In this document: positions 2,488 to 29,389 of the stretch, in pieces | How the letters are laid out: every line of letters begins with the position of its first letter | Numbering within the stretch: position 1 is the first letter of the stretch | Origin: Obrimoposthia wandeli | Taxonomy: Eukaryota | Assembly (NCBI GenBank): GCA_977020255.1 | Contig: CDROCS010000228.1 | Coordinates: 744,001-808,000 of the forward strand | Length of the DNA: 64,000 nucleotides | Reading direction: 5' to 3' | Position numbers and translations under genes: made by a program | Notes under the pieces: generated by a model | Databases searched by the model: none | The model's input: only the letters and a program-made list of their open reading frames with translations | Told to the model about the DNA's origin: nothing

Positions 2488-2515
2488 ACAATTATTTCTA
2501 AAATCAGCTAAAGAT

Positions 2516-2743
2516 ATGGGTGCTAGCCCTTCTTTACCTAAACTTAAATTTTCTTTCTATTCAAATTGTTGTAATGGAGAAGATATGGTTCAATCCAAAA
2601 GATCCAATTGGCTACACAGGAGTTTCAAAATTAGCAAAAAGAACAAAACAAAATTACAAGAAAACGCAGAAAACGCAGAAATGGCTGAGCGACCAGTTAG
2701 CCTACAGTCTGAACAAGCCGATGAGAAGAAGGTTTCCAACTAG
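2516..2743 (+). CDS. Possible overprinted small ORF with an N-myristoylation motif (MGASPS) and a CC pair
   Basis: An ATG-initiated 75-codon ORF overlaps the integrase start in another frame; it fits the MGxxxS consensus. Confidence 0.3.
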   Translation: MGASPSLPKLKFSFYSNCCNGEDMVQSKRSNWLHRSFKISKKNKTKLQENAENAEMAERPVSLQSEQADEKKVSN

Positions 2744-3610
2744 AGCTTACAAAACCAGCGGTCCTAATAATTTATGGCAAATGGATTTGATGGAGATGAT
2801 CCCATATTCTTCCATTAATAAGGGATATCGATATATTTTAACATGTATTGATGTATTTAGCAGGTTTGCTCGTGCAATTCCAGTTAAAGCAAAGTCTTCA
2901 ATAGCTATGCTTGAAGCCATTAAAGAAATATTAAAAGAGGACATTCCACAAAATGTGCAAACTGATTTAGGAAAAGAATTTTATAATAAGCAAGTTCAAT
3001 CATTATTTAAACAAAATAATATAAATCATTACTATGTGTTTTCACAATACAAAGCAGCAGTAGTAGAAAGATTTAATCGTACTCTAAGAGATCGAATAAA
3101 AAAGTATTTCACAAAAGAAGGAAATAAAAATGGATCCAAGTTTTACCTAAAATAATACATGCATATAATCACTCTGAACATAGAGGTCTCAAGGGAATGA
3201 GACCTGTTGATGTTACTAATAAAAACTCTATGGACATTTGGATGAACAGAAATAAAAAAGATAAAATTAAAAAAGCTAAATATAAGAAAAACGAATATGT
3301 TCGAATTTCGAAAATTAGCTCTACTCCATTTATTAAAAACTTTGATCAGAATTGGAGCGATGAAATATTTTGTATAAGTAAAATTGATCAAAAGAGTAAT
3401 CCAATAATGTATACTATTAAAGATGCTGACAATAATATCGTTCACGGTAAATTTTACGAGCAAGAACTACAAGTAATATCAAATAAACCTAGCGTTTTCC
3501 GTATTCAAAAAATATTAAAATCTAAGGGTACAGGTAAACATAAACAATACTTTGTTAAATGGCATGGTTATGCAGACCCAACTTGGATATCAGCATCTAA
3601 TATAATATGA
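2574..3610 (+). pseudogene. Retroviral-type (rve) DDE integrase with C-terminal chromodomain; one frameshift
   Basis: WQMDL, VQTDLGKEF and VVERFNRTL form the DDE triad; QYFVKWHGY...TWI is a chromodomain. The A5 run at 3126-3130 needs A6 to read GNKKWIQVLPKIIHAYNHSEH. Confidence 0.92.
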
Positions 3611-4665
3611 ATTATATGTATATGGTTTTACCAAGTAACGGATGTTTGAAGACTCAACCAGATAATGACTCTAGTAGCTTTATTATCGATTGGGAAAATT
3701 CTATAAATCTCCAAGGAGAATGGGAAGCGGCTTTAACAGAATTTTCTTTTTATTATTCTCCAATTACTATCAAAAAAAACTCACATATTTCGTTTACAAA
3801 ATAAGTTGATCATGAAAAAACAACTGAAGTTGTGATCGGGTTTGATAGTAAAGGACAATTCTAATACAATTGTATAGATAAAGAAATGAAAGTAATATTT
3901 AAAAATAACAAAGTCAGATTTAAAAATCGATTAAAATTTCTTCAAGTTATTAAAATTAATTTTGAATCTAAAAAAGAAGCTCTTCAATTCAGTTTTGATA
4001 GTGAACAAACAGTAGCTCGTAATAAACGGGATATTATCTCATCTAATTCGGTTAGAAATGTTCCTGGTAGAGTAGCAAAAGTGTTGTTACTTGAAACGAG
4101 AACAAAGACTGTAGTGGAACTGAAAACGTTTTCAAAAGATTATAACATAGATAGTGAAGTGAATTTCTGTAAATTAATACAGAAGGAATGTAGTGAATAT
4201 TTGGATAAATGTGAAACATTAAATGGTAAATTAACGTTTACAGTAAAGAGCAATATAAAACGAGTTTCATTTGATGATAAACTCGCTAAAAACCTTGGTT
4301 TAAACAGAAATACCTTTGAAACCCATACAATAAAAACCATAAAAGCTAAAAATAAGGCAAAACATTTAAATGCTGTTAATCATTTATATATTTATACTAA
4401 TTTAATAGAACCAACGCTTGTAGGAGGACAGCGAGTTCCACTTTTGAGAACAATATTGATATCTAAAAATGAAACTAGAGATGGGGACACTGTCGGTATG
4501 TGTATAGATCAACCAATGTATCTTCCAGTTTCTCTCTTTTCTATAAACAATATTGAAGTAAATATTAGAGTTGATTCCGGACAACTAATAGATTTCACGT
4601 ACGGGGCCAAGACAAGTTTAACAATACATTTAAGAAAACAAAATGGCGAATCCAGCAATAATTGA
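3607..4665 (+). pseudogene. Minor capsid protein (penton-like), two in-frame TAA stops
   Basis: N-terminus YMVLPSN...SSFIIDWENSINLQGEWEAALTE and C-terminus LYIYTNLIEP...PLLRTI...PMYLPV...IEVNIR...TIHLRK are typical of Polinton pentons. Both ORF-track pieces are in the same frame, separated by TAA 3802-3804 and TAA 3862-3864. Confidence 0.85.
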
Positions 4666-5020
4666 AGCTTATAGTCAAAGCCAACAAGGTGGAGAATTAC
4701 CATATTTTGTTGGTAAACAATACGGATCTGGCTGGCTTAGAACATTAGGTAGATTTGCCTTTCCTCTTTTAAAGAGACTCGGACGATTTATATCAAAATT
4801 AGGAAAGGATTACCTTTCATCTAATGACAATAAACTAATACCAACTTTTAAGAAGCATGCGCTTGATGAACTTGATAATGTTTTACCTGAAGTTGCTAAT
4901 TTGATTAGAAAACGTAAATAAAATAAAAGCCAAGGAGGTAGTGGATTTAAAAGTAAAAAGAAGCTAAAAAGTAATATAAACAAACGTAAGAATGTTGAAG
5001 GAACAATATTTGCAAAATGA
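4643..5020 (+). pseudogene. Adenovirus pVI-like maturation/membrane-lytic protein, one premature stop
   Basis: SQQGG|E is followed by amphipathic GSGWLRTLGRFAFPLLKRLG. The frame continues past TAA 4919-4921 as NKSQGGSGFKSKKKLKSNINKRKNVEGTIFAK*, with the TGA overlapping the MCP ATG (ATGA 5017-5020). Confidence 0.65.
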
Positions 5021-6245: not shown

Positions 6246-6644
6246 ATGGAGTAAGACATATTTTAAATTTTTATTTATTAATTTTTATTTAGTTCAAAAC
6301 AAGTAAAAGAATCAGCAGAGAAGGTCCTGGGTGATAAATTCAATGGAGTTTATCCTATTGATATGATTCCATTTTTTCAATCTGGAGGTTACATTATCAA
6401 TACTCATACTTCGAATTTACCAGGAGAACATTGGATAGCTATTTATGTTAGAGAGTGGACAATACATGTATTTGATCCACTTGCAATGTATTATCCACAC
6501 AAACTTGTTTCAACTATTCAAAAAGGACGAAGAAGAGTATTTTACAACAAGATACAATATCAGGATCCTGCGACGAGAAACTGTGGACATTTATGTATTT
6601 TATGGTTATCGTTGCAAAAACGATTAGTGTGTTATAAAAAATAA
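6246..6644 (+). CDS. Adenain-like (Ulp1 family) cysteine protease; 5-nt first exon (6246-6250), 42-nt intron, exon 6293-6644; 118 aa
   Basis: ATGGA|GTAAGA...TTTAG|T gives MDSKQVKE...FNGVYPID. Catalytic motifs GEHWIAI, FDPL and QYQ...NCGHLC are present. Confidence 0.85.
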
Positions 6645-6745: not shown

Positions 6746-6892
6746 TCACAACATCACAATGAGATATGTCAGCAAAGATAAGGTCCATCCTAAAAATGTA
6801 TTGAAATAACAAATAAGTTAGAGTCTAGGTGCCATAGGGATCTAAAATTAAAAAAAAACTAAACTAAAAAAATCAAATAAAATGAAAACCGT

Positions 6893-9800
6893 TTAAATTC
6901 TGAAGTGTCCATAAGCCAGGCTAGCGTTCTTTTCTACCCAAAAGCGCTTGTCGTCATTACTACTCAACGCGATTTTGGTTGATTTATGGGAATACAGTTG
7001 ATGGGCTCTTGAAATAAATCTAGTTTGCTCAACGCTTTCAATACACCCAGTATCATAAACTTTCCGGTAGGCCTCATGTGTAAGATTGTTTCTTCTCACA
7101 CCCTTTGCTCTCATTGAACATGTATTATTAGATGCATGTAAACTGTAGCATTTAGACAATCATCATACGAAACCTGTCCCTCGCTTTCATCCTTAAATTT
7201 CCCGATAATGTCCTTTAAACTCATAGAGTGTAGAGGATGGTTAGCGGGATATTTATGGGTATCTAGTAAGTTGTCCCTAAACATTGCTGGTAATAATTGA
7301 TTATTTAAACTAACATTCCTACATTCTAAAAAGAAAGACAGTGTCCCCAGCTGCGATTTTAATCTCACAATTAAATTCTTGTCGGTATTTCTCCAATTCT
7401 ATGTATTGAAGCTCATACATTCTGAGTTTAGAAATGTCTAAAACCGTTTGACCTATATAACTCGGTCGATCGAGACAAATACTCTGTTTTCCTAATAACA
7501 CTGCTACCAAGTCATCTGCAATTGTAAAACTACGCTTGAAGTTGTACTTGCTAGTATATGTTATTAGTTTACGCTCATCATTGCAAAACTGTAGACAAAT
7601 ACGTTTCCGCAAATCCTCTACAGTTTTTCCAAAGAGACTATTACTTTTTAACTTGTAAAAATCTCGATCGAATTTGCTAGTGGCCAAATTATGTTTTCTT
7701 GAATTCTTCTCAATATAGTCTTTAAACACAAAGTTTTGACTGAAGCTTATAGCACGATGAATTCGAGTAACTTTCGCTCCCAACTTTAAGTAGAATTGAA
7801 GAAGCCGCCAATGCACAACATAATTCAACTTGTCTTCATGGGTTAACAATAATTTCTTAACCTTTGAATTAGGTGGGCATTGATGAACAGGCGCTACTGG
7901 AAGATCATCTAATTTATCATGCACATTGGGAGGGATTTTTATGTCCACCTCAACCAAATAGCCGACGTCGGATGAAACTGTATCAACAGTAGCCAAATCT
8001 GTCATCAACTTATTCAACTGATCCACATCATAAACCCACTTAAAGTTGGCATGAGGTAGAGGTTGAGTAAGCGCCCACCCATACAAATTATTAATATCGA
8101 TGTAGGGGAATCTCCGTGGATTGATTTTTGACAACATGATGTTTGTTGACAAAAGTCATTCCACCGCGTATACCATAATCATACATTTGATACATCGCGA
8201 GATCTTGCAGTAACTCGATATTAATTTTAAGAGTTTTTATTGCTGTTGCCCATGAAAGACCAGGTAAACTAAAGAAATGCATGGGATCTAGCCCATCTTC
8301 TGCTAAAGACTTTACACGAAAGGACTCAAAACATCAGCTAAAAGATAAATGTCTAACTTCATATAATAAAGCATATATTCGAGAAGATTTTGACAATTAT
8401 TCACCCAAAATGTACGGGCCTCATTATAGTCTTGAAGACTTACACCCTCAAATTCAGTTATGGGTGGGATTTCAGTTGTATTTTCTAAATCTGCGAAAGT
8501 TTTCGCAAATTTATACGGAAAAAATCCCCTTATCGTTAACCGAAGCTGGGAACACTGACTGTGTAATTGGCCATGCATTTAAAGATGCCGTTAAATTTTT
8601 TAAAGACCCGCTCAAAAACTGCAGAGAATCTATGAATCTTAAACTGCAGAATTCAGTATATGCAGTTAAAGATAAATATTTCTCTGAAGTTTGAGGTATA
8701 CATGAAATTTCCCAAGAGCTTAATGTACCCAACGCGTATTTAAGTATATGATGCAAATCATATCCTTTGGGGTTATGAAACACGATGGGAATGCGTGGTT
8801 TTTTAGGGAGACGACGGCCAAGGTTACAAAGGTTGCACGCCGCTCCCAAGTATCGCCCCGTAACATGATCGTGATCTCTGACTAACTTAGACTAGGTTCC
8901 ACACAAATAACATAATCTACAAGAATTAAAATTAACCCAGTCTATGCCTGTCATGATCATTGCTTGATGAGCATTGAGATCATACCACGGTTTGACAATT
9001 GTTGTTCCTAATTCCTCTAATTTTAACATAAAATCTAAAATACAATTTGGACCGGAAAATTTATGATACTGGGTAATATTGGGGCCTAAGAATAGTAGTC
9101 CTGCCGAAGCCGGTAGGTGAATACCCTCATACTGGTCGTGCAATGCTAAAATTGACTCAAAATCTGCATACACCCTGAATTCCACGGATATGCATTTTGC
9201 CCAATCCCTGACTTTTAAATTCTTATCCTTAGGCATGCTATATAGCGTATTGTCATCAGGATTCAGTGAACATAATGTCAGATGTTTGCTGTAAGAGAGC
9301 TCGGATCGGAACCCATGCAAACATCTATGACACCACTTACACCTTATCCTAACCGGTAAGGCTCCATTATCTAAATTTACAAGACGATCTAAACTGGGAA
9401 TTGCAGCATAATGGAATTTTTTATTATGTTCGAGCAAAATTAAGTTGACCTGAGTCCCCTCTTTTTTGCTCCTATAAATTACATCTACAAAAGGATTTTT
9501 AAAAATTTCTTCATCTGTTACATTAACTGGGATATCAGTATTATATTTGAATACATTAATACTCAAGTTATTAAGATGTTCAAATCTTGATATCGCAGTT
9601 AATTTAACCGGAAAATCTATTCCATGATACTGCAATTCATTTAAAAAGGGGTATATTTACTGACACGCTCTCTATGCTCAGTAATTACATCCCTTTTGAG
9701 GATGGCCAACACGCTATACAGAAAGCAAAGGTTATCACTGTTTTGTACGTTAACAATGGAACGTGAAAGTTGAAGAGATCTAGGTGAAGGAATGTATGAA

Positions 9801-11428
9801 CTCCCCGAAAGATATATCATGTCAGTGAACTTTGTTAGAACAAAGCTAACATCGTGAATTCTAACTAGAGTCCATCCACTACTTAGCTCGCTATAATTAG
9901 CAATTTTTTCATCAAGGTTTCTTCCAATTTCAGTTACAAAATTATCATAAAAAACAGTTGCTTTATGTGAAATTACCCAAGTTTTAGTTTCCTCATTGAC
10001 ATTTTTAAACTGCACTGTTGCGCAAAATTGAACCTTAGCCTGTCCTAATTTAGTCACTTCTGATTTTAAAAGATTTTCAATATTTGAATCTACACCTACG
10101 TTTAATAAAATTTCATTTCCTAATGGCACCTTAACTATAACATATTTATTATTTAGGTGATACTCTATAGTAGCACCGTTTTCTCTACGTTTTTTGGGCG
10201 GGACCTTATTAAGAAATTGGCCTCGCCTCTTTCTTCCGTTTGTCGCTGACAAACCTCCCCCTAATTGAACGGGAAGACAACTATTTATATTAATAGTTGA
10301 AACAATCGCAGCTGAGGTTGAAGGTGCTGCTATTGGTGATGCTGCCGATGTTGAGGCAATTGCAGCTGATGTGGAAGCTGCTGATATTGTTGATGCTGCC
10401 GATGTTGAGGCAACTGTAGCTGATGTTGAAGGGGCTACTGTAGCAGGTGCTGCCGATGTTGATGAGACAGTGGCAGTTGTAGAGGCTGCAATTGAAGCTG
10501 ACCTTGCCGATGAAGAAGCGGCTGATGTAGAGGTAAGTGCTGCTGAAATAAATATATTAAAAAATAAATATATTTTTTAAAATTATTACCTCTAAGGCGT
10601 GCTAACATCGATGTAGGCACTCGCAATGGTGGAGGCATATCTGTTGTAGCAGATGACGATTGTAGAAAGGTATTTCCTGAATAAATAATATAAATAAAAA
10701 ATATATATTAAAAATAAAATATATAATTACAATTTACAAAATAAAAAAAATACCTAATGAAGGCAATCCAAGTTGAGCTGGAACGAAGTCCTCTTCATTG
10801 ATGGAATCTATCCAGCTGTCGTCCGTTGACTCGATGAAATCGGATTCCTCAATGGTCTCCAACCATGAGTTGTCGCTCCACTGAGGCTGCTCCATCTCGA
10901 AATCTGACTGGGTGATATTTCGCATCCAGTCATTGTTTGAGAATTGGGTTGCTGGTGCCAACTCCTCAAAATCTTCCTCGGAGATGTCGTTCATCCACTC
11001 ATTGTTAGACATTTGAGTGGATGGGGCAGCAGCAGAATCAGGAGCCGGGAGAGAAGGACCAATGGCAGGACCATAAACTGGTAGACTGACTGCCACTGTA
11101 AATGGAGGTGGAGCTCGAGCGGCCTGCGAATCGCGCACCAATTGGACGATATCCCTCTTCTTGTTGTTGGCCGTGAAACACGATAGGTGAGCTCGATGTT
11201 CACAGAAGAATTCTCGAAACTCCTTCTTCTCCATTGTTCTGCAGAAGGGGCAGACGAAGAACAGAACACCTTGAGACTTGGTCCGGTAGTATGCAGACAT
11301 TGTCTCCATGCAGGACTCTCCTCCATGCGGAGCCGAAGCACCGCAATACGCAGGGAATAGGTTACACGTAATCTGAAATAATAAATATTAATAAGGAAAT
11401 AATAAAACTAAATTCTTACCATAGGCAT
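6893..11428 (-). pseudogene. Protein-primed family B DNA polymerase with spliced N-terminal leader; exons 11428-11420, 11372-10754, 10676-10590, 10542-6893; several frameshifts and one stop
   Basis: ExoI VYADFES, ExoII FHNPKGYD, ExoIII YMKLD; motif A YIDINNLYG, motif B KLKSNSLFGKT, damaged motif C GDT(D)S; KGV and DDKR near the C-terminus. It also has an EndoVII-like insert (CYLC...DHDHVTG...CNLCN) and a vOTU-like segment (NLCFLYS...FHYAAI). The three GT-AG introns keep frame into the core. Confidence 0.9.
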
Positions 11429-11523
11429 TATTTCAAATTGTCGGGGATTTAAATGAAGAAAGTGTTTGCTTATATACTAAAATTTATGCACACATGCTCT
11501 TTTCCTATTGGATTAAAAAATTG

Positions 11524-11713
11524 AATTTATTCCTCCACTGAGAAGGATTGTTTATCTGTTATTGGATGAAAAAATAATTTTATTCCTCCAATTAAAGAGA
11601 AGGATTGTTAATCTATTATAGGTTGAAAAAAAATTTATTCCTCCAATCAAAAGGCTTATTTGTAAATAAATGTAAAATTTTAATAATGAATTCCTCCAAT
11701 TAGAAGAATTGTT
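11524..11713. promoter_or_regulatory. Four degenerate ~55-bp repeats (AATTTATTCCTCCAAT...GAAGGATTGTT) upstream of the PolB TATA box
   Basis: TTCCTCCA(A/C)T copies near 11530, 11583, 11638 and 11691; TATATAAG on - at 11476-11469; first ATG at 11428. Confidence 0.55.
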
Positions 11714-12202
11714 TATCTACATGTCAAGTAATAATAAGAAAGACTTAAACATTTTTTATATGCGCAATGGTCACCATGATTACGATAAGGACAGCAAATA
11801 TTTTGTGGAATATTTAATAGATGATCACGTGAAATATTTAAAGTATTCAACCTCAATTTAGGAAAATATTTTTTTAAAGTCTTATATTTTTTGCCATCCA
11901 TGTCATCTAAAACATAAAAAATTCCATTTTCAATTTCAAAATTAGATTTAATAGTATCGAAAATACATATTTCACAAAAAGCCTTATGTCCTTCTTTCCA
12001 TTTTAATAAATGGAAATATTTAGTTAGATATAAGTTAGTAAATTTTTTCTTATAATCTAAACTTTTAAATGGGATATCTATATGAAATATGAAATGCAAA
12101 GGATGAAAAACGTCGCATACATCCATAATACATAATTCTTTTATAATATAATCCCCAATTTTTGTTAATGAAAGCCTCAAAATCTATGATATATTCCTGC
12201 AT
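11713..12202 (-). pseudogene. DEDD/DnaQ-like (Maelstrom-like) nuclease of the type found in insect Polintons; one frameshift
   Basis: True start MQEYIIDFEAF at 12202 (DxE motif), frameshift near 12160, then IIKELCI, TNLYLTKYFHLLKWKEG and the Cys/His tail CCPYRNHGDHCA. Confidence 0.6.
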
Positions 12203-12854: not shown

Positions 12855-13040
12855 TTAACTTTATTTTAATAAACTTACGGAGGATATTTTAATATTATTA
12901 AATTCTAAAATTTATTGTTAACCTTGTTATTTTAATAAACTTAAGGAGGATATTTTAATATTAAATTCTAAAATTTATTTTTAACCTTGTTATTTTAATA
13001 AACTTAAGTAGTATATTTTAATATTACTAAATTCTAAAAT
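12855..13040. repeat. Three tandem ~63-bp AT-rich repeats
   Basis: TTATTTTAATAAACTTA...ATATTTTAATATT...AAATTCTAAAAT recurs near 12861, 12927 and 12990. Confidence 0.75.
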
Positions 13041-13069
13041 AAATAATAATAAAAAGACAACACAAGAAA

Positions 13070-15159
13070 CTAATGTTTATAAATTATATTTTTGAAAATC
13101 CTTACGAAGTCTTCATTGGTATCATCGGGGTCGTATTCCCTCCGACTTATTTTGATAGGAGAAAGCGGTACTGGTTCCTTCTTCTTTGGCCGGCCCGGTT
13201 TCTTTTTCGGCTTCACCGGTTGCTGTACAGCAATTGTCCTTCCCTCAGGTTTTGGCAATAGTTGCCGCAACTTTTTGGGAGGAGGTGCAGCCGATATTGA
13301 TGGCCCGGACATAGCAGCAGTAGCCTTCCTCTTCCGCGGAGCTTTCTTCTGTTTCTCCTCCTTCTCACGCTGAAGCTGGCGTGAGACGGCATCCTGTTGA
13401 TCACGCGAATCTGGAAGCATTGCGGGTGTATCCAGTTCCGCCAGGAATTCGTCCAAACCAGCGTCATCCCAGGCCCTCTTCAAGTTTTGGCTGGTTGTTG
13501 GACGAGGAGAAGCAGTATCCTGCAGGCGTTGTTGACTCGAGTGCGGACTTATCTCGATCGGCGAGACTGGGATCCTCTCATATAAGATAGGCCCGTCGTC
13601 CATTGGAGGAGGGAGAATCTCCTGCTGGCCAATCACCGCCTCAGAATAATGGCCAATTGAGGTTCAAATTTTTCTCGCGCGCCTCGTCTTCTTCACCTCT
13701 GCCCGCTTTGTCCTTTTCTTAGGGAAAGGAGTAACTTCTCCCCAAGTCTCCTCAATTATCCGGACAGGTTCCTGCAAATGAAAACAAAAATAAAATTTTA
13801 TTTTAATAAAAAAATATTTAAAATAACAAAAAATTACCTCAATAATCTTAGACGGAAGGTTTTCCTGCCGCTCAATCGTTACTTCACTCGAATTGAGCAG
13901 ACAGGATTTCGCCTTTCTAAGACGCCGTGTCTTCCGTACAGTAAGCTGCCTCGTTCGCTTATGCGGGAAAGGAGAACTTTTGGCCCACGTCTCCTCAGTT
14001 AATATTATTGGTTCCTGCAACAACAAAAACATTAATAAAATTTAAACATATAAATAATTTACCTCGATGACTGGCAGATTAGCCTTCTTCTTGGCCTTCT
14101 TCCGATGGACCGTATTGGTTTTGATTCGATGACGTCGAGCTTTCTTAACTGCCGCTTGCTTCCTATCGACAGGTAGTCTCCGAGATGCCTCCTCCCGAAT
14201 TTCCTCCACCAATTCAGCTTCCTAAGTGAATAATTAAATAAATTTACTAATTTTAATAATATACCTCAATTTTAGCCGGAGTCGGTAGGTATCTCTGATC
14301 ACTCCTGGGATCATCCTGGCTACATTGACTTGACAAGTATTGCGGTTCAATTAGCCTCTCAATCGTGGTCACTGACGGTGCCATATCCAATTGCAGTTTC
14401 TGAAAATAAAATTAAAAACATTTTAAATAAATGATTTCTAACCTCATTCGTCGCCTTTATTCTCCTAACAGGACGTATCGGAGATTGTGGCCTTCTGAAT
14501 GGATCAGGCACTGTATTGTTGGGTATCGGAGTCGGAGTTGTAGAGGGAGTGAGACCATCCCATTCGTCAGTGAACAGATCCCACTCATCGTCATCCATTT
14601 CTGCAACCATGGACTCGTTGGCTCCCGGGGCTCCGATACTTGGCTGTATCCACTCCTCCTCCCCATCCGACGGAACGTCATCAGTAAACAGCTCCTCGTC
14701 TGAGTCTGGTGCCAGTATTATCTCCAGTTGAGACAGCGGGATCAATTTCCTGGGGCATTTGATTGCCGCCTCGAAATTGTCAAAGAGATTGGATCTCCTT
14801 GCTGCTACTGCTGAAGTTGCCGGACGATTGGCTTCTGTGTTCAGCCTGGGAGTACAGTCTTCCCAATTCTCTATCGAATCCTGACTAGTCAGATCGATAT
14901 ATTGGGATCTCTGTACCCCACCTCGCACGCTCATTGGTTCTTCTCTTGGAGTTGAGCTGGCCAATGGCGGTTCTTCTAGCAACAGTTGGGCTCTTGCTGC
15001 TGCTTCTCCTTCGTCTCCTTCACTCACCACCGACGAGTCTTGACTAAGTAAGTCAATGTACTACGCCGGTGGTGGCGTTCGCTGCTGTACTGGAGAGAGA
15101 TCTCCATACAGCTGAACCTCCGTCTCTTCATCCAAATCGACGTTATTGAAATTTGACAT
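13070..15159 (-). pseudogene. Multi-exon acidic/basic disordered protein with SUMO-interaction-like motifs; exons 15159-14443, 14399-14265, 14221-14063, 14014-13838, 13771-13070; two in-frame stops
   Basis: Four phase-0 GT-AG introns (43, 43, 48 and 66 nt) join open frames. Stops are TAG near 15062 and TGA 13666-13664. Motifs include YIDLL, YIDLT, KPGRPKK and basic NLS-like clusters. Confidence 0.7.
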
Positions 15160-15242
15160 TCTTGCTTCTTGATTAATGATATTTGATTTATGAAAAAATA
15201 ATGAAAAGAGGTTTCCTTATATACAAAAATAATAGACTAATC

Positions 15243-15513
15243 CTCTTTTGTCGTCCAATGAGAGTGGGTTAATCAAATAATTTATTTGAAAATCAGTAGG
15301 CTTTTCTCAATTTTTTAACTATGTTTTAATGCTGGAATTTCATTGGATAAAACATATTTTATTCGAAAATATATCACTAAACTTTTGTCGTCCAATGAGG
15401 GCTGGGTATTCAAATAATTTATTTGAAAATCAGTAGGCTTTTCTCAATTTTTTAACTATGTTTGAATGCTGGAATGTCATTGGATAAAACATATTTTATT
15501 CGAAAATATATCT
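15243..15513. repeat. Direct duplication of a ~139-bp CCAAT-containing promoter module
   Basis: CTTTTGTCGTCCAATGAG...AAATAATTTATTTGAAAATCAGTAGGC...TTATTCGAAAATATATC occurs twice in tandem upstream of the 15159 ATG. Confidence 0.8.
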
Positions 15514-16386: not shown

Positions 16387-19300
16387 GGTCATGACCCTCT
16401 ATGGTCGGCCAACATAGCCAAGGGGTTGTGGCCGACCATAGATGAAAATATCGGATTCAGTTTTGACTTGAAGGTTTGAAGGTTTGAAGGTATGGTCATG
16501 ACCATATATGGTTGACCAACACACCTAAAGGGTTGTGGTCGTCCATATATGAAAGGGTCGGGGTCAGTTTTGACTTGAAGGTTTTAAGGTATAATTAAGG
16601 TCTATTATAGTTGATCAACACATCTAAAGGGTCATGGTCGGTCATAGTTGAAGGGGTCGGGCTAAAGACAAAATTAACTTTCAAATATCAAGGTTTTAGT
16701 ACATAGTTGGAATCATCTTTTGAAGACGAATTCATCCATAAAGGTATGGTCGTCCATAGATGAAGGGTTAAAAAAAGTTGTAAGTACATGGTTGTGTTTG
16801 TCAAAATATTGTGCGTTTAATCATGTAAAAACTTTATAGTCGTCCACAAGTTAAGGGTCAGATTTGGAACAAACTTGATAATTTTATTACATGGTTGTAT
16901 TTGTCTATTAAAATTGAGGTCAACCATATCCTTATGATCATGCATAAGTTGAGGGATCCTAGTGTAAATAAAAAAAATACTTGTAATTTAAAAAAATATA
17001 TTTATATATATATATTTTTTAATTAAAATTTTTGTAAAATAATTTTTTTTTACACTTTCAGTCATACTCTATAACTCTAATTCCTTTACACATTCGATAT
17101 TACTAACGTTTTTTTTACTTACTCTTGTTATCACTTAGTATCATTTTAAATCATACTATCTAACTCATTTATTTACATTGTGATTTACATTTACATTCAT
17201 TCATACCTTTCTAATGACTTACTTGTCTATAGTTTTACTTACATTTAGTATTATTTTAATTCATACCATCAAACATAGTGTTGTTTCCTATTAATCTTGC
17301 TGTCACTTAGTCATTCTAACTTTTAACATAACTCAGTATCATGCTTCTTACAGTTGTTTACTTGTTATTAATCTAACTGTAACTTAACATAACTTTTATG
17401 CATACGAAACCTCTATTTGAATTTACTTAGAGTCTAAATTACATTCACATTCAATCATACTCTCAACACTCTTTTTTTTAATTACTCACACTGTCACTGT
17501 TTCACACTTGCAGTTTTACATTCACTTGCTAAGACTCTTACTTGTATTTGCATTCACTTGTAATCATACATGCATTCATTTACATTCATTCTAACTCTCA
17601 TTTATTCAAACTATCATTAAAAATCATTAATATTGTATTAATTTCCATTCATACTTGTACTTGACATTCGTACTTGCAATCGTATTCTTTCTTACTTGTA
17701 CTTGTAGCTACATTCATTCATACTTGCATTCATTTACATTCATTCTTACTCTCATTTATTCAAACTATCATTCAAATTCATTAATGTTTTTACTAATTTT
17801 CATTCATACCGTCAAACTAAGTGTTGTTTTCTATTAATCTCGCTGTAACTTAGTCATTCTAACTTTTAACATAATTCAGTATCCCTGATTCTTATAGTTG
17901 TTTACTTGTTATTAATCAATCTGTCATTTAATATAACTTTTATTCATACGAAAACTCTATTTTAATAAACTTGTAGTCGTAATTATACTCGCATTCAATC
18001 ATACTCTCGACACTCTTTATTTTTAATTACATTCACTTGATAAGATTCTTACTTGTATTTGCATTCACTTGCATTCATACTTGCATTCATTTACATTCAT
18101 TCTAACTCTCATTTATTCAAACTATAACTCAAATTCATTGATATTTTTACTAATATTCATTCATTATTGTACTTGAATACATTGTTCTTGCATTCGTATT
18201 CATTCATAATTGTATTCGTAATCTTTCTTACTTGTACTTGCATTCATTCTTAATTGTAATTGCTTTTATTTAAATTTACACTTGTATTAATTCACAATCG
18301 ATTATTAATTTTATTTTTTTTCACAAGAGATTTTTAATATTTTAGAAAGTTGAATAATAAATGGAAATACTAAGTTTATAATCGAATATGTACATAATTT
18401 GATTTATTTACATATAAAACAATATAATTAAAGATTTGATATTCTAATTTATAGACGAAGCTTTCAGTAAGCTTTGAATAACATGTGTTTGCAAATTAAT
18501 TTTCGATATTCGATACAAATAAAAATAAAATAAATTTGAAGTTTTTTTTTAATGTGTTAAAGATATTTTCGACTATTTAAAGTGTAAATCGAATAATGTT
18601 AATACTCAAATTATATAAATAAACATTTCTTTAACCAAGTTTTTTAAAAATAAAGAATTCAAATTTATCAGTTTAAAAAAACTAATTAAGGAATGTTATT
18701 AAATGAGATAAAGAATTTTTAATTATTTATGTGTGTGAAGTGATCATTATAACATGTGAAAATTATGTTTGAGAATAAACACACACACGAAAATTGACAA
18801 TTATTAATATAATATAAACAGATTATTAATGTTATTCATTGGTTGCTAGTATTAATTTGATAATTACAAATTAATAATAGAAAATGATTTATCTTTATAT
18901 ATATACATATATTTTTTTTAATTTGCTTTATAATTATTATATTTTTAATATGTTTATCATTATTTTAAGGCATAAATTACAATCATAAAATAGTGCAATT
19001 TTAAAATTAATAAATATTTAAGATATTTAACTTAGAGTTATAATAAATAGGTTTGTGTTTGTATATACATTTGTTTAAATACATCAAAAGTGACAATATA
19101 AAAATCGCGGTAATTTAAAAATATGTTAGAATTAATCATTTTACAGACTTTTATCAAAATTTAAATTATTAAAATCTAAAGGGAGAGTACAAATTGTTTA
19201 AAGTACAAATTGTAAAAAAAGAATTACAAGTAAGTTAATATCTTGTATTATTCTATTATTTTTAAATAACATTTGTATTTAGTAGTTATTACTTGAACTT

Positions 19301-21897: not shown

Positions 21898-23519
21898 CTG
21901 TTCACACTGCTTAATTCTTACACGTAATGCACAAATATTTCGGCACAATTCTTAATCGAATTTGGGAAATTCTCAATGATCAGAATTTTTATGTGGTCTT
22001 TGTTTTAAATTATGTATATAGACTAGCTCCTTACAATTTCCAACACTTAAACGTTCAATTGTAACAAATCTGGGTTACATTTGTGTTGAGAATTTCTAAA
22101 TAACTCTCACAGTAGGTAGAAGGATGGAGTCTAAGCCACTTGACCCCCCCCTTGTGCGCACACAATGTTAAAGGATTTTTCAACATAAGGGTGTCACACC
22201 ATAACGGTGTCTTGCCACACCATAAGGGTATATGTTGCCTCACCATATAAATGTCACACCATAAGGGTATATGTTGACTCACCATAAGGGTGTCTTGCCA
22301 CACCATAAGGGTCTGGCTCAGAAAGTTTATGATAGGGGGAGGGGGGAAGGGTCAAGTGGCTTAGTCTCCACCCTTCTTTGGTATACCACTAAAGGGTTGT
22401 GGTCGTCCATAATTCAAAGGGTCAAGGTCAGTTTTGACTTGAAGGTTTGAAAGTATGGTCATGACCGTCTATGGTCGTTCAAAAATCAAAGGGTCAGACT
22501 CAGTTTTGACTTGAAACTTTGAAGGTATAATTAAGGTCAACTATGGTTGGCCGTCACATCTAAAGGGTTGTGGTCGTCCATAAATCAAAGGGTCAGACTC
22601 AGTTTTGACTTGAAACTTTGAAGGTATTATTAAGGTCAACTATGGTTGGCCATCACATCTAAAGGGTTGTGGTCGTCCATAGGTCAAAGGGTTGGGCTAA
22701 AAAAAAAAAAATTAAAATATCAAGGTTTTAGTACATGGTTGTAATCATCTTTAGAAGGTGAATTCAGTCATAAAGTATGACTGTCCATAAATCAAAGGGT
22801 CGAGCTATAGACCAAATCAAGTTTTAAATGTCAAGGTTTGAATACATGGTTGTAATCATCTTTAGAAGACGAATTCATCCATATATGTATGGTCGTCTAT
22901 AGATGAAGGGTTAAAGAAAAGTTGGAATTTCATAGTTTCAAGTACATGGTTGTATTCTTCAACATATTACGAGTTTATTCATGTACAAATTTTATGGTCG
23001 TTCACAAGTTAAGAGTCAGATTTGGCATAAATTAAGAAATTATATAGTATTCAATCAATTATTCTATGTGAAAGTTCACTCTTATCAGTTAAGGAATGTA
23101 TTACGTAATCATACACACACTATTCTATGTGAAAATTTAGTCTAAAGTTCACTCTTATCAGTTAAGGAATGTGGTTTTTAACACACACACTATTCTATGT
23201 GAAAGTTTAGATCAAAATTTTTTCCTAGGCTTATACATCTATAGAATTATGATAAAATTTCTTTAAATAACTTAAATTACATATTAAAATAAAAAATAAA
23301 ATAAGAAAGAAGTCAGAGAATAATACAAAATTAAACACATTTATTATGCAATTTCATAATATCATCTTCAAACTTAAGTGAATAACATTTACAAAGTAAG
23401 AAAGTCCATTCTTTATACATTCTTTTCGTTTCAACGACTAAGTTACAGAGGGGAAAAAAAACAACAACACTAAGTTTAACGCTATGAATGAAAATTAGTA
23501 AAATATTAATTTATTTGAA

Positions 23520-24660
23520 TATTTGAATGATAGTTTGAATAAATGAGAGTTAGATTAAATGTAAATGAATGCAAGTATGAAAAAAAAACACTAAGTTTAA
23601 CGCTATGAATGAAAATTAGTAAAATATTAATTTATTTGAATATTTGAATGAGAGTTAGATTGAATGTAAATGAATACAAGTATGAATGCAAGTATGATGT
23701 AATTTACAAGTAAGAGTCTTAGCAAGTGAATGTAATTTAAAAAATAAGAGTGTCGATCGTTTGATTGAATACAAGTGTAATTTAGACTATATGTAAATTA
23801 AAATAGAGTTTTCGTTGAATAAATTATAGTTAGATTGAATGTAAATGAATGCAAGTATGAATGCAAGTGAATGCTAGTATGAATGTCAATACAAGTAAGA
23901 GTCTTAGCAAGTGAATGTAATTTAAAAATAAGAGTGTCGATAGTTTGATTGAATACAAGTGTAATTTAGACTATAAGTAAATTAAAATAGAGTTTTCGTT
24001 GAATAAATTATAGTTAGATTGAATGTAAATGAATGCAAGTATGAATGCAAGTGAATGCTAGTATGAATGTCAATACAAGTAAGAGTCTTAGCAAGTGAAT
24101 GTAATTTAAAAATAAGAGTGTCGATAGTTTGATTGAATACAAGTGTAATTTAGACTATAAGTAAATTAAAATAGAGTTTTCGTATGAATAAAGTTATGTT
24201 AAGTTACAGTTAGATTAATAACAAGTAATCAACTATAAGAAGCAGTGATATTGAAGTATGTTAAAAGTTAGAACGACTAAGTTACAGCAAGATTAATAGA
24301 AAACAACACTAAGTTTGAAGGTATGAATGAAAATTAGTAAAATATTAATGTATTTGAATGTAATTGAATGATAGTTTGAATAAATTACAGTTAGATTGAA
24401 TGTAAATGAATGCAAGTATGATTGAATGCATCTACAAGTACAAGTAAGAAAGAATACGACTGCAAGTACGAATGTCAATTATGAATGAAAATTAGTAAAT
24501 ATATTAATGAATTTGAATGGTAGTTTAAATATACGAGAGTTAGAATGAATGTAAGTGAATGCAAGTATGAATGTAAGTGAATGCAAGTATGAATGTAAGT
24601 GAATGCAAGTATGAATGCAAATACAAGTAAGAATCTTTGCAAGTGAATCTAAAAATGCAA
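23520..24660. repeat. ~185-bp tandem units plus GAATG/CAAGT short repeats, left arm of C
   Basis: GAGTCTTAGCAAG at 23714, 23899 and 24083. Confidence 0.8.
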
Positions 24661-25519
24661 GTGAGTACTAGCTAATTATTAAATTAATACTATCAATCAA
24701 TGAAGATGATGTAACAACCTGATGAAGTTAAAATAATTAGATGTGAACTTTCATATTTTCACATAGTTTACCCCATGTTAAAGTTAACCTTTCATACACA
24801 CTCATGCAATTAAATAATTAAAATGTCTTATCTCGTTTAATAACATTCCTTAATTGAAATATTTTAAAATAATTAGATAAATTTAAATTCTTTATTTTTA
24901 AATAACTTGATTATAAAATTATATTCGTAAATATAATTGAAATTATCATTATTCGTTTCTCTTTTTAACTATTCGAAAATATATTTATATACAAATTTAG
25001 TAAATTAACTCAACAAAGAATTTTTTTTTAATTACTTGATATTTTTGCCATTCTCTTATCAATATAATATGAATATTCAATTATTTCTTAAAAAATTCTT
25101 TTTATATGTTATATAATATTTCTTTACCACATTATTGTGGTATTTTATCAAGTGATTTTAACTTTAAACTATTAAAAAATATTTTAATTATAAAGTTACT
25201 AGCTGTACCCCACCGACTGCCTATAATATAAATTTCAAATATAAAGTACTATTAAATGTATTCTTTCAAATAGTAAATGTTCTTTAAAGAATTTAAATTT
25301 ATCTAATTATTTTAAAATATTTCAATTAAGGAATGTTATTAAACGAGATAAGACATTTTAATTATTTAATTGCATGAGTGTGTATGAAAGGTTAACTTTA
25401 ACATGGGGTAAACTATGTGAAATATGAAAGTTCACATCTTAATTATTATAACTTCATCAGGTTGTTACATCATCTTCATTGATTGATAGTATTAATTTAA
25501 TAATTAGCTAGTACTCACT

Positions 25520-26900
25520 TGCATTTTTAGATTCACTTGCAAAGATTCTTACTTGTATTTGCATTCATACTTGCATTCACTTACATTCATACTTGCATTC
25601 ACTTACATTCATACTTGCATTCACTTACATTCATTCTAACTCTCGTATATTTAAACTAGCATTCAAATTCATTAATATATTTACTAATTTTCATTCATAA
25701 TTGACATTCGTACTTGCAGTCGTATTCTTTCTTACTTGTACTTGTAGATACATTCAATCATACTTGTATTCATTTACATTCAATCTAACTGTAATTTATT
25801 CAAACTATCATTCAATTACATTCAAATACATTAATATTTTACTAATTTTCATTCATACCTTCAAACTTAGTGTTGTTTTCGATTAATCTTGCTGTAACTT
25901 AGTCGTTCTAACTTTTAACATACTTCAATATCACTGCTTCTTATAGTTGATTACTTGTTATTAATCTAACTGTAACTTAACATAACTTTATTCATACGAA
26001 AACTCTATTTTAATTTACTTATAGTCTAAATTACACTTGTATTCAATCAAACTATCGACACTCTTATTTTTAAATTACATTCACTTGCTAAGACTCTTAC
26101 TTGTATTGACATTCATACTAGCATTCACTTGCATTCATACTTGCATTCATTTACATTCAATCTAACTATAATTTATTCAACGAAAACTCTATTTTAATTT
26201 ACTTATAGTCTAATTACACTCGTATTCAATCAAAATATCGACCCTCTTATTTTTTCCCAAATTACATTCACTTGCTAAGACTCTTACTTGTATTGACATT
26301 CATACTAGCATTCACTTGCATTCATACTTGCATTCATTTGCATTCAATCTAACTATAATTTATTCAATGAAAACTCTATTTTAATTTACTTATAGTCTAA
26401 ATTACACTTGTATTCAATCAAACTATCGACACTCTTATTTTTAAATTACATTCACTTGCTAAGACTCTTACTTGTATTGAAATTCATACTAGCATTCACT
26501 TGCATTCATACTTGCATTCATTTGCATTCAATCTAACTATAATTTATTCAACGAAAACTCTATTTTAATTTACTTATAGTCTAAATTACACTTGTATTCA
26601 ATCAAACTATCGACACTCTTATTTTTTAAATTACATTCACTTGCTAAGACTCTTACTTGTAAATTACATCATACTTGCATTCATACTTGTATTCATTTAC
26701 ATTCAATCTAACTCTCATTTATTAAAACTATCATTCAAATATTCAAATAAATTAATATTTTACTAATTTTCATTCATAGCGTTAAACTTAGTGTTTTTTT
26801 TCATACTTGCATTCATTTACATTTAATCTAACTCTCATTTATTCAAACTATCATTCAAATATTCAAATAAATTAATATTTTACTAATTTTCATTCATAGC
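25520..26900. repeat. Inverted counterpart of the ~185-bp array, right arm of C (one extra unit)
   Basis: GCTAAGACTC near 26087, 26274, 26458 and 26643. Confidence 0.8.
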
Positions 26901-29389
26901 GTTAAACTTAGTGTTGTTGTTTTTTTCCCCTCTGTAACTTAGTTGTTGAAACGAAAAGAATGTATAAAGAATGGACTTTCTTACTTTGTAAATGTTATTC
27001 ACTTAAGTTTGAAGATGATATTATGAAATTACATAATAAATGTGTTTAATTTTGTATTATTCTCTGACTTCTTTCTTATTTTATTTTTTATTTTAATATG
27101 TAATTTAAGTTATTTAAAGAAATTTTATCATAATTCTATAGATGTATAAGCCTAGGAAAAAATTTTGATCTAAACTTTCACATAGAATAGTGTGTGTGTT
27201 AAAAACCACATTCCTTAACTGATAAGAGTGAACTTTAGACTAAATTTTCACATAGAATAGTGTGTGTATGATTACGTAATACATTCCTTAACTGATAAGA
27301 GTGAACTTTCACATAGAATAATTGATTGAATACTATATAATTTCTTAATTTATGCCAAATCTGACTCTTAACTTGTGAACGACCATAAAATTTGTACATG
27401 AATAAACTCGTAATATGTTGAAGAATACAACCATGTACTTGAAACTATGAAATTCCAACTTTTCTTTAACCCTTCATCTATGGTCGACCATACATATATG
27501 GATGAATTCGTCTTCTAAAGATGATTACAACCATGTATTCAAACCTTGACATTTAAAACTTGATTTGGTCTATAGCTCGACCCTTTGATTTATGGACAGT
27601 CATACTTTATGACTGAATTCACCTTCTAAAGATGATTACAACCATGTACTAAAACCTTGACATTTAAAACTTGATTTGGTCTATAGCTCGACCCTTTGAT
27701 TTATGGACAGTCATACTTTATGACTGAATTCACCTTCTAAAGATGATTACAACCATGTACTAAAACCTTGATATTTTAATTTTTTTTTTTTAGCCCAACC
27801 CTTTGACCTATGGACGACCACAACCCTTTAGATGTGATGGCCAACCATAGTTGACCTTAATAATACTTTCAAAGTTTCAAGTCAAAACTGAGTCTGACCC
27901 TTTGATTTATGGACGACCACAACCCTTTAGATGTGACGGCCAACCATAGTTGACCTTAATTATACCTTCAAAGTTTCAAGTCAAAACTGAGTCTGACCCT
28001 TTGATTTTTGGACGACCATGACCCTTTAGATATGTTGGTTGACCATAGACGGTCATGACCATACCTTCAAACCTTCAAGTCAAAACTGACCTTGACCCTT
28101 TGAATTATGGACGACCACAACCCTTTAGTGGTATACCAAAGAAGGGTGGAGACTAAGCCACTTGACCCTTCCCCCCTCACCCTATCATAAACTTTCTGAG
28201 CCAGACCCTTATGGTGTGGCAAGACACCCTTATGGTGAGTCAACATATACCCTTATGGTGTGACATTTCTATGGTGAGGCAACATATACCCTTATGGTGT
28301 GGCAAGACACCGTTATGGTGTGACACCCTTATGTTGAAAAATCCTTTAACATTGTGTGCGCACAAGGGGGGGGTCAAGTGGCTTAGACTCCATCATTCTA
28401 CCTACTTCTCACCAGTTACAGTAACTGGGAAAAATATCCAATTATGAGGATGGGACAAATGCCAACCCAAACAATAATTCCGGGACTGTTCACAGACTTA
28501 TCGAAACTTTATGACGGTTTTCTTCACAACAAAACACACAATTGTGGCGATTGACTTTTAAAAACATCCTCAAACAATTCATGAAACTGTTCACGGAATT
28601 CTAAAATGCAGTAAAAATCATCTTCATTCAGGTATTGAACCAATCTAGGTCACCAAACTTTTAAGTCTTATTTATTTAAGATCGTTGAACAGTATTTCGA
28701 GTTCTGCAGAAAGACAACGTAAAGAATATTGTTTGCTGTGTCAGCACTTCTTTAGCAATCTGCCGATTTTCCTATGTGTTCACTACTGAACGAGAGAACT
28801 TAGGGAGCAGTTATTTATACCATTTGTTGTTAAAATATTTACACGAATATTAATTCTAAATGTTATGGAATGGAAACAAAAAGAAAACATGGAGATTATA
28901 TTGATATTTTGCTGAAAAAGTCACAGCAATGTACAGAAGACTTAAGAGACGCATATTAAATATTACAAAGGAAAGATTCACCAATCAAGGATTATATTAA
29001 TTTAAGCCAAGTCAATATGGTTAACTAAAAGGAAGTTGATATAAGTGAAAGTAAATTTCATTTCGGAAGAAACCATTATCAAATTTGTACATGAGAACAT
29101 TCCACCAAAAAATGCATTGCGTTTAGGAAATTGTCCGGCACGACCGAAGGAAAATGGTAAAAAACAAAAGGTTGTGTAATAAATGCTTATAGAAAGGATA
29201 TTGGACAAAAAATATTAAGTGCAGACAATTATGTCATATAGATGGATGTAGTCAAAGCATCATTGGATTTAACACATTAGAATGCAAACAAAAGATCATT
29301 GAAGTATAAGGAAACAAACTAATCCGTAAAACCAGATGCATTTGCAGGTTCAACAGAAAATAATGGTGACTTTTCGAACAATTCCAGTG

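Follow-up and report, generated by a model that had tools for sequence, protein, structure and literature searches.

Where does the protein-primed polymerase (pPolB) of a Maverick/Polinton element begin when the reading frame that encodes its terminal-protein end offers no start codon? The question is raised by a copy in a 64,000-nucleotide stretch of the Obrimoposthia wandeli genome (contig CDROCS010000228.1 of assembly GCA_977020255.1, positions 744,001 to 808,000; hereafter the window), where the first Met of the frame, at residue 241, lies beyond the terminal-protein-like region. The terminal-protein end of the polymerase is therefore without a start unless the message is spliced, and the original prediction proposed just that: a leader, assembled across three introns from a tiny first exon, a Cys/His-rich domain, acidic repeats and a Ser/Thr/Ala linker, that would run in frame into the polymerase, might be cut off by the adenain of the element and could, through intron retention, double as a regulator.

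The element and its setting

Judged from Pfam gene content, a Maverick/Polinton occupies the first ~16 kb of the window. The PF03175 polymerase, the rve integrase with a chromodomain and the A32-like ATPase all match above the Pfam cut-offs, and by these matches the element is a Maverick/Polinton of the adintovirus type. The capsid-like ORFs have no Pfam match and owe their name to their position and their likeness to ORFs of the related contig L061. By eye, the right end of the element likely lies near 16387, and the left end seemingly falls before the start of the window. The genes that bear on the leader are as follows.

591-1028, + strand: TBP-like ORF within the element (TBP match in Pfam, E 3.7e-11)
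1280-1978: A32-like ATPase (Pfam, above cut-off)
2143-2487, + strand: small basic protein with QNGG, a probable virion core protein
2502-3610: rve integrase with chromodomain (Pfam, above cut-off)
4634-4921, + strand: small protein with QQGG and QYGSG, a probable virion core protein
6282-6644, + strand: adenain-like protease (Peptidase_C5 match at E 0.032, short of the cut-off; by eye, it has the His, Asp, Gln and Cys motifs)

The homologue of the 4634-4921 protein on L061 carries the same QQGG and QYGSG motifs, and the protease has a QSGG motif near its own N-terminus. The family is numerous, exon 2 of the leader alone having at least 150 matches at 96-100% identity in the 1.35 Gb host assembly.

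Several neighbouring features were noted in passing. Another probably spliced gene, with acidic, Pro-rich and basic exons, lies on the minus strand at 13034-15171; AT-rich GT-AG intron candidates are found at 14062-14015, 13837-13772 and 13105-13034, with further ones by eye, and two of its ORFs have no Pfam match. Upstream of the leader, a 156-aa ORF without a Pfam match (11713-12183, - strand) resembles by eye a 154-aa ORF of L061 (4144-4608, - strand), both having an acidic motif near the start and a Cys/His-rich end. Short direct repeats with CCAAT-like words, also seen by eye, precede both minus-strand spliced genes (11500-11700 and 15240-15500) and are possible promoters. Outside the element, the large nested inverted repeats at 22111-28406, whose arms reach 774 nt with 99% complementarity, are a foldback-like host repeat.

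A predicted spliced leader ahead of the polymerase

The gene model of the leader and of the polymerase that follows it, all on the minus strand, is listed below.

11420-11428, - strand: exon 1, 9 nt, encoding MPM and supplying the start codon (53 of 57 other copies retain the ATG)
11373-11419, - strand: intron 1, 47 nt, phase 0, 85% AT
10754-11372, - strand: exon 2, 619 nt
11148-11372, - strand: Cys/His domain of ~75 aa in exon 2, a putative zinc binder (profile family, alignment and model)
10791-10997, - strand: four acidic W-x3-I-x3-DF repeats in exon 2
10677-10753, - strand: intron 2, 77 nt, phase 1, 94% AT
10590-10676, - strand: exon 3, 87 nt, Ser/Thr/Pro-rich
10543-10589, - strand: intron 3, 47 nt, phase 1, 94% AT
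from 10542 onward, - strand: exon 4
10268-10542, - strand: Ser/Thr/Ala linker, 71% S/T/A, of variable length among copies
10253-10267, - strand: QLGG/LGGG, candidate adenain sites (by motif)
10223-10237, - strand: basic patch GRKRR, candidate nuclear localisation signal
9641-10222, - strand: terminal-protein-like domain and start of the vOTU domain of pPolB (40% identity to residues 184-383 of protein P0001)
6890-9650, - strand: rest of pPolB in pieces (PF03175 above cut-off in two pieces; tblastn)

The three GT-AG introns that had been predicted, with the MPM exon and the phases 0, 1 and 1, are borne out by this gene model. Exons 1-3 are 50-56% AT, as against 85-94% in the three introns, and the leader spans 1005 nt, or 335 codons, up to 10253. 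Of the 18 ways to pair donors and acceptors around the three AT islands, only three leave the frame open; all three use the donors of the model and differ only by in-phase acceptors of intron 3. The predicted leader exons supply the sole start codon of the polymerase. The four acidic repeats described earlier are all present, with 23 D/E against one K/R in 80 aa, and their likeness to a transactivator is a resemblance of composition alone. An acidic ORF on the plus strand, 10269-10580, is set aside as the probable antisense counterpart of the Ser/Thr/Ala linker.

Past the leader, no stop interrupts the spliced frame before 9641, which makes 539 codons with the stop included. The claim that it runs into the polymerase therefore holds for the terminal-protein domain and the start of the vOTU domain, but not beyond, where the polymerase of the window copy is spread over several frames. 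These two domain names were assigned by position, after 10.1101/2024.03.18.585575, and by homology among relatives. The vOTU Cys motif N-x-C-F-L-Y-S is found in the window and in 27 of 29 copies, and the vOTU His motif was located by eye in the next polymerase piece.

Sister copies in the same genome

Comparison with 57 other copies, at 96-99% identity, found the splice sites largely kept, the GT donors of introns 1, 2 and 3 in 57, 56 and 54 copies and the AG acceptors in 57, 56 and 55, although at this identity splice-site retention by itself says little. In 26 of the 57, no stop interrupts the spliced frame as far as 10050. Beyond the vOTU Cys motif, 22 of 29 sister copies read on for more than 60 aa, five stop within 60 aa and two lack the motif.

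Indels common to at least two copies are distributed differently in introns (six non-triplet, one triplet) and exons (none and three; Fisher p 0.033), a comparison to be read with the caveat that several intron indels lie in homopolymers and are possible errors, and that repeats in the linker make triplet changes partly automatic. Net length change in the linker is a multiple of three in 25 of the 29 copies that show one. Substitution ratios for exons 3 and 4 come close to 1 or exceed it, and for exon 2 they are 0.4-0.55, the latter biased by the choice of 28 of the 57 copies for their exon-2 protein similarity; as evidence of selection, copy-level ratios were set aside as too biased or uninformative.

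The Cys/His domain

A search of 1.84 billion representative sequences returned 31 matches to the domain. Twenty-nine fit the domain profile (21 of the 29 having gone into it), and the other two, P0015 and P0038, were discarded as repetitive false matches that do not fit it. In exon 2 numbering, C21, C41, P42, C44, F55, H59 and H62 are invariant in 22 aligned sequences, and each of C3, C10 and H16 is present in 70% of them or more. The Cys/His motif first described is thereby upheld for C3, C10, H16, C21, C41, C44, H59 and H62, but not for C57 and C65, which are not conserved in relatives. The conserved residues probably form two zinc sites, one CCHC (C3/C10/H16/C21) and one C2H2-like (C41/C44/H59/H62). 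Two or three copies of the domain can also stand in tandem, in some cases behind classical C2H2-like fingers.

Structure prediction, which had been suggested as a check, gave a model of a helix, three strands and two helices at pLDDT 79.8; a single-sequence fold was unusable (pLDDT 39.6). For the window domain the best Pfam match fell below cut-off (E 0.076), the best family matching four of 22 members, and the best hit of a sequence profile search of the PDB had E 0.87. A wide fold search of the PDB reached at best Z 3.1, with an rmsd of 3.5 over 58 aligned residues. Foldseek returned no viral or PDB match at E 0.001 or better, and the Atlas gave no usable match for the window domain and GRF-type leads below 0.9 for P0027. 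By these searches the Cys/His domain defines a family for which neither Pfam nor the PDB offers a clear counterpart, which does not imply a new fold. Seven members (P0025, P0028, P0030, P0032, P0036, P0037 and P0039) end just past the domain in hydrophobic, AT-rich-type tails, as if the called frames were reading into an intron.

Fusion of the zinc domain and the polymerase in relatives

A search with the terminal-protein/vOTU region found two proteins. The N-terminal segment of P0001 (1303 aa) matches exon 2, with a pairwise E of 4e-08 and, against a domain profile built without P0001, an E of 5.6e-17. In P0001 and its contig-level twin L061, one stop-free frame of 1298-1303 aa runs from the zinc domain to the end of the polymerase, and P0018, P0021, P0034 and P0044 likewise hold the zinc and terminal-protein domains in the same ORF.

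A second Polinton family of the host genome, found by searching with P0001, completes this set, so that the two domains stand in one stop-free frame in five unrelated protein clusters and in the second family. This family has no nucleotide match to the window leader and shares 31% identity with the window over 100 aa of the terminal-protein region. All 36 of its copies (L084-L119) have the zinc domain, and in 24 an open frame leads from it to the terminal-protein domain across a linker of ~35 aa, the coding part examined being free of introns. The other 12 are broken in the zinc-domain part, ten of them at two places. These two places contain homopolymers, the polymerase matches of the broken copies are mostly open, and the breaks may reflect hot spots of slippage, errors in the assembly or lineages that move without it. 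Upstream of the L084 polymerase, inspection by eye shows a TBP-like motif and an ATPase Walker A on the other strand. Just upstream of the zinc domain of this family lies a short AT-rich intron candidate (L084 1630-1682; GT in 36 of 36 copies, AG in 35 of 36, length 41-56), and a like candidate precedes the start of the zinc domain in L061 (20-75), both close to the position of intron 1 of the window leader.

Two metagenomic contigs, L062 and L063, have four and three phase-1 introns of 46-50 nt that join open mini-exons to the terminal-protein exon, with no zinc domain detected by the domain profile in the sequence available. The mini-exons at L062 242-423 and L063 979-1156 are symmetric phase-1 units of 66 nt, two of those in L062 being duplicates that each carry IQTGG, and an upstream exon carries ALDLS in L062 and ALDFS in L063. 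The basic patch has a counterpart in the equivalent position of P0001, P0034, L062, L063 and the second family. Between the zinc domain and the terminal protein, these comparisons show a linker that freely gains introns and low-complexity sequence.

Other searches mark the limits of this distribution. The zinc domain is absent from P0002/P0006 as called, neither P0001 nor the second family shows the acidic repeats, and scans of viral contigs found no relative. Word-seeded protein searches gave none with a longer fused form among ten candidates for the zinc domain alone and no fused form among 3532 with alignment A1, the latter search being insensitive and missing P0001. Because one of 23 metagenomic pPolB loci (many distant or incomplete) has the domain, the domain is best read as marking a clade of Polinton pPolBs, not all of them, and the comparison shows the putative zinc domain to be an inherited N-terminal part of the polymerases of that clade.

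Since relatives hold domain and polymerase in one frame, the fusion does not depend on the splice prediction. That a zinc-finger leader is joined to the polymerase, as first proposed, is thus strongly supported at the level of sequence, and we regard the leader-polymerase fusion as very probable.

A candidate adenain site at the end of the leader

The adenovirus protease cuts at (M/I/L)xGG-X and (M/I/L)xGx-G and also accepts Gln or Asn at P4; the terminal-protein precursor pTP is one of its substrates (PMC4246237). QLGG and LGGG at 10267-10253 fit the relaxed form of this consensus. The proposed likeness of QLGG to the QxGG sites of the probable virion proteins also stands, as they share the Gln and Q-type motifs number five in the 4138 aa of the element's frames, against 0.43 expected, with the reservation that the motif was defined after being seen in the window element. 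The two small probable virion proteins account for three of the five; the protease and the end of the leader have one each.

In relatives, four of the nine linkers tested have a Q-type motif (window, P0001, P0034 and P0027), with a shuffle probability of 0.004-0.04 each; L062 has QTGG twice and L063 QSGSG once. QxGG or QxGxG thus precedes the basic patch in three of the seven proteins with zinc and terminal-protein domains and in the leaders of L062 and L063. The Q-type motif is absent from P0018, P0021, P0044, P0043, P0045 and the second family, and four of the seven fused proteins have neither a Q-type nor a wider motif between the zinc domain and the terminal protein. The suggestion that the adenain cuts off the leader therefore remains plausible, through the fit to the consensus and the recurrence in P0001, P0034, P0027, L062 and L063, but as an optional step, given the four fused proteins that lack the motif. 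Within the window family, we consider adenain trimming of the leader somewhat probable.

A precursor model and its alternatives

These features suggest that the replicase may be made as a precursor with the order zinc domain, acidic repeats, flexible linker, QxGG, basic patch, terminal protein, vOTU and polymerase. The leader would act before and during initiation, most likely by tethering the terminal protein/polymerase to the element ends or to host factors, the zinc domain binding nucleic acid or protein and the acidic repeats binding host factors. Where QxGG or QxGxG exists, adenain would trim the leader off the genome-linked terminal protein during particle maturation, in the manner of adenovirus pTP. 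The available text of 10.1101/2024.03.18.585575 proposes that the vOTU separates terminal protein from polymerase; if so, leader plus terminal protein would be the counterpart of adenovirus pTP. As a whole, this account of fusion, initiation or tethering, and trimming is modestly favoured, and the initiation or tethering role taken singly is a tentative assignment, conceivable but falling a little short of probable.

One alternative to a precursor is that the upstream ORF is a separate gene whose phases match by chance while the polymerase starts elsewhere. For fixed sites, three phases would agree by chance about once in 27; this reading, however, has to contend with a frame that offers no Met before residue 241 of exon 4 and with fusion of the same domain without introns in six other lineages, and is hardly tenable. 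A leader that is fused but never cut, with the zinc domain as a permanent N-terminal accessory and QLGG incidental or vestigial, would agree with the four of seven fused proteins that lack the motif, with the linker of just ~35 aa in the second family and with the lack of special protection of QLGG among copies (it is changed in eight of the 57). It would leave to coincidence the recurrence of the motif immediately ahead of the basic patch in five leaders that are unrelated, as are their linkers, at the low shuffle probabilities found where tested, and the Gln that QLGG shares with the small virion proteins of the element, and we regard it as rather unlikely.

A further alternative, close to the switch first envisaged, is that under some conditions intron 2 is retained or polyadenylated to give a free zinc-finger/acidic regulator of ~215 aa, or that the cleaved leader is an E1A-like regulator. 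Retained intron 2 would indeed lead to a stop six codons in, in 34 of 45 copies with intact exon 2, but the tail is 3, 8, 15 or 58 codons in the other 11, and an early stop is expected of any intron that is 94% AT. Neither AATAAA nor ATTAAA occurs on the coding strand from intron 2 through exon 3 and intron 3 to the exon-4 leader, down to 10253. In a message that kept the intron, the stop would come prematurely, a long way from the 3' end, and messages of this kind are expected to decay. Some relatives look like free regulators, P0019, P0024, P0026 and P0029 having the domain beside C2H2-like fingers or acidic stretches in an ORF without a polymerase, yet they are gene-caller products and may be single exons. 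P0033 has PLDLS and L062 ALDLS, which may be read as CtBP-binding motifs, but LxCxE, CR1 and PxDLS are all absent from exon 2, exon 3 and the exon-4 leader of the window. The 'Oncoid' ORFs upstream of adintovirus PolB (PMC8502044, from section 3.2) lend such a regulator a precedent. With no poly(A) hexamer and a tail that varies from 3 to 58 codons, the intron-retention switch between regulator and polymerase is unsupported, and the reading as a whole is distinctly improbable. A broader version, in which a Polinton clade encodes regulator and replicase as one spliced polyprotein, with an undescribed two-zinc domain and fast-evolving host-binding motifs (acidic repeats here, PLDLS-like in relatives) released by the virion protease, and in which maturation or alternative splicing uncouples an E1A-like regulator, we judge to be unlikely but worth stating; if it were true, some of the 'separate' ORFs upstream of PolB would be 5' exons of the polymerase.

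Relation to known replicases and regulators

The precursor model has points of contact with described systems. Three-codon first exons are a feature of adenovirus Pol/pTP, one for which the literature search gave no confirmation. With its PF03175 polymerase and N-terminal vOTU-type Cys/His motifs, the window protein is like the TP-vOTU-polymerase of Polintons and the PolB of Alpha adintovirus, as presented in the accessible parts of 10.1101/2024.03.18.585575 and PMC8502044, and it likewise lies in an element with integrase, ATPase, capsid-like and adenain-like genes. Just two domains, TP and vOTU, are described ahead of the polymerase in those parts of the two papers; unlike that architecture, the window leader adds a Cys/His domain, a variable linker and, as often in relatives, an adenain-type site upstream of the TP. 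The putative cleavage recalls adenovirus, whose genome-linked protein loses an N-terminal part at (M/I/L/Q)xGG or xGxG sites (PMC4246237). In adenovirus, however, pTP is a separate protein, whereas the candidate precursor here is fused to the polymerase and its removable part is the zinc domain.

Position upstream of PolB, Cys-richness and a regulator-like look also liken the leader to the adintovirus 'Oncoid' (PMC8502044) and 'Ziftr' zinc-finger genes (PMC11071296). These are, in the available descriptions, separate ORFs, with LxCxE/CR1 in Oncoid, whereas the window leader lacks both motifs, lies in the polymerase frame and is set apart by description; measured against an Oncoid/E1A-like pattern of LxCxE and/or CR1 beside paired CxxC, it has just one CxxC. 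Vertebrate Mavericks belong to the same element class, and the intact ones are reported as intronless (PMC8097293), unlike the polymerase leaders of the window, L062 and L063 with their several short spliceosomal-type introns. The available main text of the literature searched, taken without Repbase and supplements, contains no account of a zinc-finger leader on a Polinton pPolB, and neither does that of PMC11296320, PMC12721341, 10.1101/2023.08.22.554363 or 10.64898/2026.10.13.758929; the annotated supplementary maps of PMC8502044 and PMC11071296 could also be relevant.

The TP-vOTU-polymerase architecture of Polinton replicases would thus be extended by a conserved, unnamed Cys/His domain. 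The true start of a pPolB can sit several short introns upstream of its recognisable domains, with the consequence that ORF-based annotation truncates the polymerase and lists the leader as unrelated genes. The parallel to adenovirus pTP maturation, if it holds, bears on whether Polintons mature as virions and on how their ends are recognised.
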